The notes: a model not told the origin generated them from the letters alone. A stretch of DNA of 32,000 nucleotides from Gemmata obscuriglobus (GCF_008065095.1 NZ_CP042911.1:4470001-4502000), one strand, 5' to 3'; numbered from the stretch's first letter, positions 14,590 through 17,500 are shown. Translations and numbers: made by a program.

Positions 14590-17500
14590 CTACCCGGCTT
14601 CCTTCTCGTTTTCCGTGTCGCCGAACGCGGACTTAAACGCCTTCAAGTGCTGCTTGAGGAGCGGCTTGAGCTTTGCGGGAGCGAATTGGTTCGCGGTAGC
14701 GAACCACACCTTCAGCACCTCGCTCCCGTCGGCGCGATCGCCCTCGACAAGGGCCTCGCGGCCCACGTTCTCGAACTGGGCCGGTTTCGCCGTCCCGCGA
14801 CGGCCGGTGAACCACACCTCCAGGGCGTCGGTTTCCTTTGTCTTGAGCCGCGCCCAGAATCGAGACGCGCCGGCCGGCCGCACCGTCACGGCGTCGCGGG
14901 TGTCCCACTTGAACTCCAGCGCCGGGTCGAGTTCCCGGAGCAGATCCAAGAGCTTCGGTAGCACGGCGCGGTCCCACTTCGCGCCCCGGCCGGGCGGGAA
15001 CCCTTTATCACCAAGGTGCCACTTCTCCCCGTCCTTCTTCCAGGGCATGTTGGCTTCCACGCCACCGGCTCCGGAGTCGTTCAAACCCTGAACAAGTTCC
15101 ACTGCCTTCTTCAGGAACTCGCGGAACGCGGGCGTATCGATCTCCGCCTTCTTGTGAACGGTGATCGTGACCGTCTGCCAGCCGGTCGTGTTCTGCACCT
15201 CGACGCGGTTGGCGTCGCGGGAGTACCCTTCGAGCCCCGGGGTGTCAGACAGGGGCGGGATCGCGAGTTTTGCCGCGAGCTGATCCTGTTTGAACGGGCG
15301 CCCCGGTAGCGGGAACACGAGCTTCATGTACGCCTCGTGCCCGGTCATTGCGTGGAGGAACCAGCCGTCGGCCTTCCGCGGCGCGGGGATCTCCACGACG
15401 CTGCGGTGGTTCCACTTCGTTTCGGGGAACGTGCCGGACTCGTGGATCAGGTCGATGACCCAGGCGAGCGCGGCGCCCTCCCACTTGACGGGCTTTCCGG
15501 TGGTGGTGACGCGGTCGCGGGTGTGCCACCCGGGGCCATCGGCCTCCCAGGGGAGCTTCTGCTCTTTGCCCACGTCCGAGATGTCGAGATCGCCGGCACG
15601 CTCCGCGAGGGCCGCGTGCGGATCGAACTTCGGGCGCGCCGCGAACGGCCCTGCGGCGATCACGTCCTTGAGGATGCGCCCGGTGTGCGTCGGGGCGCCG
15701 GCGGCGAACTGGGCCACCACCTCTTCCGGGGTGCCGGCGGCGACGACGTGCCCGCCGCCGCCGCCGGCCTCCGGCCCCATGTCGATGACCCAGTCCGCGG
15801 ACTTGATGACATCGACGTTGTGTTCCACCGTGATGACGGTGTTCCCCAGATCGACCAGGCGCTGAAGCACTTCGAGCAGCTTCCGCACGTCGTCGAAGTG
15901 CAGCCCGGTGGTCGGCTCGTCGAGCAGGTACAGCGTTTTGCCGGTGCTGGGGCGGGCCAGTTCCGCGGCGAGTTTCACGCGCTGCGCTTCGCCCCCGGAC
16001 ATGGTCGGCGCCGACTGGCCGAGTGACATGTACCCGAGGCCGACGTCTTCGAGCGTTTGCAGCACGACGCGGATCTTCGGGATGTTGTGGAACAGGGCCA
16101 GGGCCTCGCTGACGCGCATGGCGAGCACGTCGGCGATGCTCTTGCCGTGGTACCGCACCGCGAGCGTTTCCGGGTTGTAACGGGTGCCGTTACAGGTGTC
16201 GCACTCCACCCACACGTCGGGGAGGAAGTGCATCTCGATCACCTTCTGCCCCATCCCTTCGCACGCCTCGCACCGGCCTCCCTTCTGGTTGAAGGAGAAC
16301 CGCCGCGGGTGGTACCCGCGGACCTTCGACTCGGGGAGCCGGGCGAACAGCTCGCGGATCAGGTCGAACACGCCGGTGTAAGTCGCCGGGTTGCTCGACG
16401 GCGAGTTGCCGATGGGGTCCTGGTCGACGTTGATGATCTTGTCGATGTGTTCGAGGCCAACGATGTCGTCGTGCGCGGCCCCGGCGGTGCGGGCGCGGTG
16501 CAGCTTGCGCGCGAGGGTGTTGTAGAGCACCTCGTTCACCAGCGACGACTTCCCGGACCCGCTCACCCCGGTCACCGCGACGAGCGCCCCGAGCGGGATG
16601 TGTACGTCCACGTTCTGGAGGTTGTGCTGGCGGGCGCCCAGGATGCTAAGCGTGACCCCGTGCGGCGACCGCGCGGCGACGGTCTCCGACCCACTCCCAA
16701 CCCCTCGCTGCAGGGAGGGGAGCAGATCCACAACCGCACCCTGCGCGCCGGATTCGCGATTCGATTCCGACGTGCCTTTGCTCCCCCTCCTTGCAGGGAG
16801 GGGGCTGGGGGGTAGGTTGCCTTCCCCCGCCGTGCGCCGGTTCGTCGGAACCGGTATGGCGAGCTTTCCGCTCAGGTACTTCCCCGTGAGCGATTCTGCG
16901 GCCTTTGCAACCTGCTTCGGTGCGCCACTGGCGGTGATCTCGCCGCCGTGGTCTCCGGCCCCGGGGCCGAAATCGAGCAAGTGATCGGCCGCCGCGATCA
17001 CCTCGCGGTCGTGCTCGACCACGACGAGGGTGTTCCCGAGGTCGCGCAGCCGGTGCAGTGCCTGAAGGAGCCGCTCGTTGTCGCGCGGGTGCAGCCCGAT
17101 GGTCGGCTCGTCGAGGACGTACAGAACGCCCGTCAGCCCGCTGCCGATCTGCGACGCCAGCCGGATGCGCTGGGCCTCGCCGCCAGAGAGCGTCGGCCCC
17201 TGCCGGCCGAGCGTAAGGTAGTCCAGGCCCACGTCCACCATGAACTTGAGGCGCGAGCTGACCTCGCGGAGCACCTCGCCCGCGACCTTGCGGTCGGTCT
17301 TCGAGAGCGTGAGCGAGTCGAAGAGCGCGAGCGTGTCGCCGAGCGGCTTCGCGCACATCTCGCCGATGGTGAGGTTCGCGAACCGGGTCGCCGCGGCGTC
17401 GGCCCGGATGCGCGCACCGCGACAGGCGGAGCAGGGCACCTCATCCACCAAGTGATCGAGGCGCTGTCGGTACACCCAGGACACCCGCGACGCCTCGTCC

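Follow-up and report, generated by a model that had tools for sequence, protein, structure and literature searches.

A duplicated, unannotated domain family at the C terminus of the fused double UvrA of Gemmata obscuriglobus and other Planctomycetes

The window analyzed here, the whole stretch of 32,000 nucleotides of Gemmata obscuriglobus DNA (NZ_CP042911.1, 4470001-4502000) in whose coordinates all positions are given, contains on its minus strand a long gene for a UvrA protein of 2383 amino acids (14590..21741, stop codon at 14590-14592), as defined from the list of open reading frames and the translation. The chain begins with a complete class I UvrA unit (aa 1 to ~985; 18787..21741, minus strand), covered by the NCBIfam model PRK00349 at aa 4-978 and carrying the UvrA_inter and UvrA_DNA-bind domains. 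A linker of 24 aa, ATARSTARGQLKKAKAEQPEPAQF (18715..18786, minus strand), leads to a second complete unit (aa ~1010-2029; 15655..18714, minus strand), which was delimited with Pfam, PRK00349 and BLAST comparisons with two related proteins (P0116 and P0121) and which includes low-complexity inserts. Over the whole protein, Pfam recovers two stretches of UvrA_inter (8e-74), two of UvrA_DNA-bind (1e-38) and seven of ABC_tran, and the NCBIfam models PRK00349 (2652 bits) and TIGR00630 (2558 bits) both score above their cut-offs. Both units are thus complete and of class I, and a single polypeptide carries them. The model PRK00635, an equivalog of excinuclease ABC subunit A with 1809 positions that we take to represent the chlamydial tandem UvrA, covers only aa 7-980 and reaches 1371 bits against a cut-off of 3054 bits. 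The canonical UvrA C terminus THTGRILKDVIA closes the second unit at about aa 2029, and since positions 905-941 of the 943 positions of PRK00349 align there, the UvrA part stops at about this residue. The flanking genes in the window are unrelated, with no secretion gene and no linked candidate partner among them. The DNA around the gene has about 68% GC and, as expected at this composition, long spurious ORFs are abundant on both strands over the region that encodes the end of the protein.

The fusion as such has been described before: planctomycete UvrA was presented as a fusion of two genes (Fig. 13 in Mahajan et al. 2021, PMC8567305), with two complete UvrA units per polypeptide, as in the Gemmata protein. 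That part of the article describes the fusion by its Pfam 32.0 domains, and the description does not include a C-terminal module. In the Gemmata protein, such a module follows the second unit. The first-pass annotation had noticed that the protein continues for about 370 aa after the last ABC domain; the extension is real and somewhat shorter, 354 residues (aa 2030-2383; 14593-15654), when the UvrA part is ended at about aa 2029. It starts with a conserved linker, AGPFAARPKFDPHAALAERAGDLDISD (15574..15654, minus strand), which was delimited from the consensus of the family alignment and is predicted with a pLDDT of 86-89. Its GPFAxRPKFDP motif is common to the proteins with two copies of the domain described below and to those with one (P0208, P0261 and L085 have the motif). 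Two domains follow, at the places where two repeats had been noted earlier. Domain A (aa 2057-2224; 15070..15573, minus strand), delimited by AlphaFold2 (AF2) models and alignments, has 168 aa and combines a tryptophan-rich cap with a predicted alpha-beta3-alpha-beta2-alpha sandwich; its cap motif, PWEADGPGWH (15523..15552, minus strand), contains the P, W, G, W and H that are invariant in A, B and single-copy units. Domain B (aa 2225-2383; 14593..15069, minus strand), delimited by hhalign, AF2 and a tree, is a diverged duplicate of A with a domain length of about 150 aa. Its cap motif, PWKKDGEKWH (15016..15045, minus strand), lies inside the best-conserved stretch of B, MPWKxxGxxWHLxxKGFPxG. 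Domain B terminates in about 10 disordered residues, and the AF2 pLDDT stays above 90 except in this last block. The motifs PWxxDGxxWH, GxxxKW, LxxxLDLxxE and KWxxRxxV, listed previously as shared by the two repeats, are all present and aligned between A and B.

The similarity between the two domains is far above chance. A direct BLASTP comparison of A and B gives E = 5e-11 with 36% identity over 59 aa, and their Smith-Waterman score is 120, against 31.6 +/- 5.4 for shuffled sequences (n = 2000, z = 16.5, with 0 shuffles reaching 120). An hhalign comparison of the first and second halves of an 80-sequence family alignment spans 144 columns, with a probability of 98% and an E-value of 2e-13. 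Because the hhalign match covers these 144 columns, the homology of A and B spans their full length. In a MAFFT alignment, 47 A and B units align end to end, with a lone 15-residue insert in A, and P8, W9, G13, W16, H17 and W31 are invariant in all 47. The internal duplication proposed in the first-pass annotation is therefore upheld by the repeat statistics (z = 16.5; E = 2e-13) and, as judged from sequence comparison, it is real and takes in whole domains, beyond the N-terminal motifs.

The AF2 models point to a module that folds separately from the UvrA body, with a pLDDT of 92.4 (pTM 0.66) for the whole tail and of 93.8 (pTM 0.89) for domain A alone, in agreement with its earlier description as an appended domain. 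Each domain is predicted to have a cap, made of two short helices and a hairpin bearing PWxxDGxxWH...W, and a core in the order alpha1, beta1-beta3, alpha2, beta4-beta5, alpha3, arranged as a two-layer sandwich (DSSP of the AF2 models).

No family could be assigned to the tail from its sequence, as the first-pass annotation had also concluded. Pfam gives 0 matches at E <= 1 on the tail, both in the Gemmata protein and in 80 family members. NCBIfam leaves aa 2030-2383 uncovered, the UvrA model PRK00349 ending at about aa 2029. The PADLOC models of anti-phage defence do not match the tail, PHROGs match it only once, at E = 0.19, and among PDB sequences the best values, 0.09 with a single sequence and 0.012 with a profile, are not significant. 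The literature searched reports planctomycete UvrA as a two-gene fusion and does not mention the tail. Hence, the fused UvrA is already known, and its tail is a domain family undescribed in Pfam, NCBIfam and the literature searched. We are nearly certain that this family is genuine, folded and maintained by selection.

The family is tied to one host protein. A word-indexed search with the tail retrieved 115 proteins, which come from Gemmata or Gemmataceae and are all pieces of the C-terminal part of "excinuclease ABC subunit A"; in all 115 the domain ends the protein. With a profile merged from the repeats, an exhaustive HMMER search extended the family to 589 cluster representatives at E <= 1e-3, including 385 at E <= 1e-10. 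The best 150 of the 589 are each a UvrA C terminus or a short fragment; architecture is known for these 150, and a distant relative outside UvrA could hide among the 439 weaker ones. Every match with a readable context is the C-terminal end of a planctomycete UvrA, and a search seeded with single-copy units returned UvrA fragments only. The two-copy form occurs at no fewer than 552 loci when one genome is taken per species, i.e., at least 552. Among the matches listed, the closest locus is that of Gemmata algarum JC673, whose tail is 98% identical, and across orders the identity of the tail ranges from 45 to 98%. In 41 of the 54 complete related loci (GTDB), the uvrA reading frame has 2290-2616 aa. 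A fragment labelled Pirellulales has two copies of the domain. Other members of the family have a single copy: the 2155-aa protein P0265 has two UvrA units followed by one domain, and single-copy tails are also found in P0229 and P0252 (Phycisphaerae, Phycisphaerales) and in P0221 (Thermoguttaceae). The tail is a conserved accessory module, so far seen only on planctomycete UvrA.

Some matches initially resembled other architectures and were set aside. Short proteins of ~145-320 aa looked like stand-alone copies, and the three examined (P0017, P0311 and P0291) all fall within uvrA genes whose frame is broken, in noisy assemblies. A different fusion, in which an ABC-membrane-like N terminus precedes the domain (P0194), is a lone case; the coverage of its contig is 1.26-fold, and the sequence is probably a chimera. 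A viral origin was also discarded, the sole IMG/VR match being the 3' end of a uvrA at a contig edge. Many other short proteins begin at the methionine of the MPWK motif, which suggests an artefact of gene calling.

The two copies have had different histories. In a neighbour-joining tree (a distance tree with no support values), the units of B make up a single clade, and those of the single-copy form are scattered among the A units. The pattern suggests a single ancient duplication and, in several lineages, the absence or loss of B. The single copy of Phycisphaerae and Thermoguttaceae is of the A type. On this comparison of sequences, A is the ancestral, always-present copy, and B is an old, diverged and optional duplicate that is missing in some lineages. 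The UvrA core changes more slowly than the tail and, within the tail, A more slowly than B: compared with P0116, the two UvrA units are 73% and 71% identical, A is 52% and B 47% identical, and compared with P0121, A is 42.5% and B 31% identical. R57, E61, H74 and R123 are kept on successive strands in A and in the single-copy units; E61, H74 and R123 are lost in B, which conserves best its cap. These results bear on the earlier suggestion that the tail provides one copy per UvrA unit and acts symmetrically. The suggestion is weakened because single-copy proteins still hold two UvrA units, as P0265 does with its one domain. Nor are the copies equivalent, B being monophyletic, faster evolving and deprived of polar strand residues. 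The functions put forward with this suggestion, namely damage recognition, DNA binding or partner recruitment, may still apply.

Which known folds does the domain resemble? We compared the tail and domain A with the PDB and the tail with BFVD, using Foldseek, and no match in these searches was both significant by its E-value and meaningful as a superposition; the target-normalised TM was 0.56 or less throughout. The top group for domain A is that of the class I type III secretion chaperones (Spa15, SycN/YscB, CesT, InvB and SycH), with Spa15 as the best match (E = 8.5e-3, probability 0.95, TM 0.34/0.41, rmsd 8.1 A), and the next is that of the YbjN-like proteins (2plg, 3cxj and Deinococcus DR_1245). 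Both groups share with the predicted core of domain A the alpha-beta3-alpha-beta2-alpha order, the two-layer sandwich and a size of ~130-150 residues, but the similarity is sub-significant (E >= 8.5e-3, TM 0.25-0.42, rmsd 8-10 A), and neither Pfam nor sequence or profile comparison places the tail in the chaperone or YbjN-like families. Unlike the secretion chaperones, the tail domains have an extra tryptophan-rich N-terminal cap, are basic, are fused to UvrA and occur outside a secretion-system context. The C-terminal DNA-binding domain of MotA from T4-like phages also recurs among the weak fold matches. The MotA "double-wing" structure 1kaf matches the whole tail with a target-normalised TM of 0.56 (probability 0.94, rmsd 5.6 A, E = 0.043), and three phage MotA models in BFVD do so with E = 0.008-0.027 and a probability of up to 0.95. 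LAGLIDADG enzymes recur as well among these weak matches. The topology known as "secretion chaperone-like / double-wing", alpha-beta3-alpha-beta2-alpha, is common to secretion chaperones, YjbR and the MotA C-terminal domain. From the predicted models, the domain probably has a fold of this general type with an added cap, which we take as a likeness and not as proof of kinship. Two other candidates were rejected. Glutamate dehydrogenase gave two whole-tail matches with E = 3e-4 and was dismissed, the query-normalised TM being 0.14 and the rmsd 15 A. The ACT-like domain 9c7n, also among the best matches of domain A, aligned to only 85-90 columns of its 168 residues with a query-normalised TM of 0.27-0.29, and the ACT unit (beta-alpha-beta-beta-alpha-beta, about 80 residues) has another order of secondary structures.

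What could such a module do on UvrA? The C-terminal part of UvrA lies near its DNA-binding surface. As a tentative preference, and with odds that we put below even, we propose that the tail is an auxiliary module for nucleic-acid contact or tethering. It would hang from the free C terminus of the second UvrA unit, next to the face with which the covalent UvrA "dimer" binds DNA, and would add to it a nucleic-acid contact or a tether. Domain A would make contact through its conserved polar and basic strand residues, which presumably sit on the open face of the sheet, and the aromatic/basic cap would be used by both copies. The repair sensor could then be held on DNA or be aided in sensing distorted or single-stranded DNA. 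We favour DNA contact because the domains are basic (median pI of 8.9 for A and 9.6 for B), because Arg and His are kept on the strands of this putative open face, because of the aromatic/basic cap and because of the recurrent, weak likeness to DNA-binding saddles (MotA and LAGLIDADG). Several observations argue against it. The modelled domains have no significant fold match, and what they resemble most commonly are the type III secretion chaperones, whose ligands are proteins and not DNA. The single-copy units are weakly basic (median pI 7.9, range 4.6-10.6), and the cap has conserved acidic positions next to the basic ones. The conservation of the Trp residues may have no more than a structural reason. 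The genomic neighbourhood, where the flanking genes are unrelated, provides no support either. A narrower version of the proposal, in which the tail is a domain of a previously unknown kind that senses DNA structure or damage or tethers the protein to the nucleoid, seems to us rather doubtful. If it were true, it would alter how the covalent UvrA "dimer" searches an unusually condensed chromosome, Planctomycetes being known for their condensed nucleoids and complex cell plans.

The fold resemblances can also be read in favour of protein binding, and we rate this nearly as likely as DNA contact, i.e., possible but still improbable. The chaperone-like sandwich would bind an extended peptide or a protein, and the UvrA machine would be recruited or localised through this contact. 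Docking could be to UvrB, Mfd or RNA polymerase, to the SSB tail, or to a protein of the nucleoid or one associated with the membrane. The best and commonest Foldseek matches of domain A, to the class I chaperones and then to the YbjN-like proteins, are in line with this reading, as is the chaperone topology of the alpha-beta3-alpha-beta2-alpha core; the tandem pair could mimic a chaperone homodimer, and among the YbjN-like proteins, DR_1245 is presumably a partner of the repair protein DdrB. An extra anchoring interaction would also fit the SDS-soluble UvrABCD of Tuwongella immobilis: the fractionation data in Mahajan et al. (PMC8567305) place all four proteins of this species with the SDS-soluble and not with the Tris-soluble proteins, unlike in E. 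coli. Against docking, the likeness to chaperones is limited to TM values of 0.25-0.42 with an rmsd of 8-10 A and comes without sequence similarity. Secretion chaperones are small, acidic, stand-alone dimers, whereas the tail domains are basic and fused. The existence of single-copy lineages means that a pseudo-dimer would be dispensable, and no gene for a candidate partner is linked to uvrA.

The tail could instead act within its own protein, folding back on the UvrA body, for example at the DNA groove or an ATPase site, and either gating its activity or bracing the pseudo-dimer. In the gating form, it would be an autoinhibitory element relieved by DNA or by UvrB. The linker speaks for such an arrangement, being conserved and fairly confidently predicted (pLDDT 86-89) and not a floppy tether; so do the strict co-occurrence of the domain with planctomycete UvrA, all the complete proteins seen being of the fused double form, and the evolution of the tail, which is faster than that of the UvrA core and yet keeps a few invariant residues. 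Nevertheless, a tandem UvrA without such a tail exists (PRK00635, 1809 positions), so the fusion itself needs no tail, and we consider the fold-back unlikely. Finally, the chance that the tail results from read-through, from a frame wrongly called in DNA rich in GC or from the decay of a sequence now devoid of function is negligible, and this reading is excluded: long spurious ORFs do overlap the region on both strands, as they would in such a case (68% GC), but one uninterrupted frame covers UvrA and the tail in 41 of the 54 related loci that are complete, the tail keeps 45-98% identity across orders together with invariant residues, and it combines an AF2 pLDDT above 92 with an internal homology of z = 16.5.

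These results may have consequences for the study of nucleotide excision repair. UvrA is among the best-studied bacterial repair proteins and, to our knowledge, its domain inventory is regarded as complete. Lineage-specific domain additions are common; here, an additional UvrA domain, modelled with a confident fold, is present in one or two copies across a whole phylum, with the two-copy form in at least 552 species genomes. Should the domain bind DNA or a partner, this would represent a lineage-specific change in the organisation of damage search. If the narrower version, with a sensing or tethering domain, proves true, the tail would be a new functional element in bacterial nucleotide excision repair and its Trp/His cap a new nucleic-acid-binding motif. 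At a minimum, the domain merits a family entry of its own, since annotation now absorbs it without comment into "excinuclease ABC subunit A." The tail is small, looks soluble and is modelled with confidence, which makes it suitable as it stands for structural and binding work.

A last observation concerns the MmcQ/YjbR family (PF04237), which presumably has the same fold as the MotA C-terminal domain. Kinship with it, suggested by this fold and by the position of yjbR near uvrA in E. coli, was considered and rejected at the sequence level, since hhalign of the repeat profiles gave probabilities of 0.2-0.4% against the E. coli YjbR sequence and a YjbR profile, a shallow one whose members are >= 76% identical. 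None of the 80 family members matched PF04237 at E <= 1, and the best 50 Foldseek matches do not include YjbR structures. The two genes converge in E. coli K-12, where 34 bp separate the end of yjbR from the 3' end of uvrA, and this adjacency may be a coincidence.

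The C-terminal tail of the UvrA protein starts with a conserved linker (window 15574-15654, minus strand), whose motif AGPFAxRPKFDP begins directly after the end of UvrA. Because this motif is kept across orders, in proteins with one copy of the tail domain as well as in those with two, the linker is a component of the tail module rather than a mere spacer. UvrA unit 2 also differs from unit 1 in having long low-complexity inserts, which are Pro-, Ser-, Gly- and Arg-rich and are lacking in unit 1. From the translation, they lie at about aa 1385-1415 and 1620-1690 (window about 16650-17600, minus strand), and one of them falls between the ATPase halves of unit 2.

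Outside UvrA, the tail domain was seen in a single context. In the protein P0194 (locus L086, 5694-6839), a region resembling the membrane part of an ABC transporter takes the place of UvrA in front of a single-copy tail domain. The coverage of this contig is just 1.26-fold, and the fusion is therefore probably a chimera. The 3' part of a uvrA of the single-copy type was also found at the end of a contig filed as viral (IMGVR_UViG_3300048591_001610; L085 1-1110), where a long Ala/Ser/Thr-rich spacer separates the conserved linker from the tail domain. This piece is likely to be host DNA at the contig edge. In Escherichia coli K-12, yjbR (PF04237) is convergent with uvrA and ends 34 bp from its 3' end (L084 4659-7872, corresponding to NC_000913.3 4270658-4273871), and its database name is "MmcQ/YjbR family DNA-binding protein." A sequence relationship between E. 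coli YjbR and the planctomycete tail was looked for, and none was found.

In one well-covered metagenome contig (L087 3465-11304), uvrA was called as two genes separated by about 340 nt. The first encodes 652 aa, matching the first half of UvrA unit 1, and the second encodes 1767 aa, containing the remaining half of unit 1 together with unit 2 and the tail. Two other proteins, P0264 and P0161, have the same start point as the 1767-aa protein. The two-gene arrangement could mean that the gene is truly split, or that an insert in it went unrecognised. In this contig, ligA lies upstream of uvrA.

Within the window, an ECF sigma factor gene (22025-22762, plus strand) lies on the strand opposite to that of uvrA, just past the 5' end of that gene. 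The 459-aa ORF that follows it (whole stretch 22025-24151, plus strand) had no match in Pfam and is possibly the anti-sigma factor of its neighbor. On the minus strand, a MoxR-type operon (5695-10382) comprises an AAA_3 ATPase (9354-10382), a DUF58 gene (8464-9321) and genes for two VWA proteins (6711-8030 and 5695-6717). This operon seems to have no connection with uvrA. A transposase ORF with DDE_Tnp_1_assoc and DDE_Tnp_1 domains occupies 581-1336 (plus strand). The GC content is about 0.68 in positions 1-22000, but about 0.57 in 24000-32000. The gene content of this low-GC part is ordinary, including a VIT-VWA protein, a xylose-isomerase-like TIM barrel, a Ser/Thr kinase and accA.
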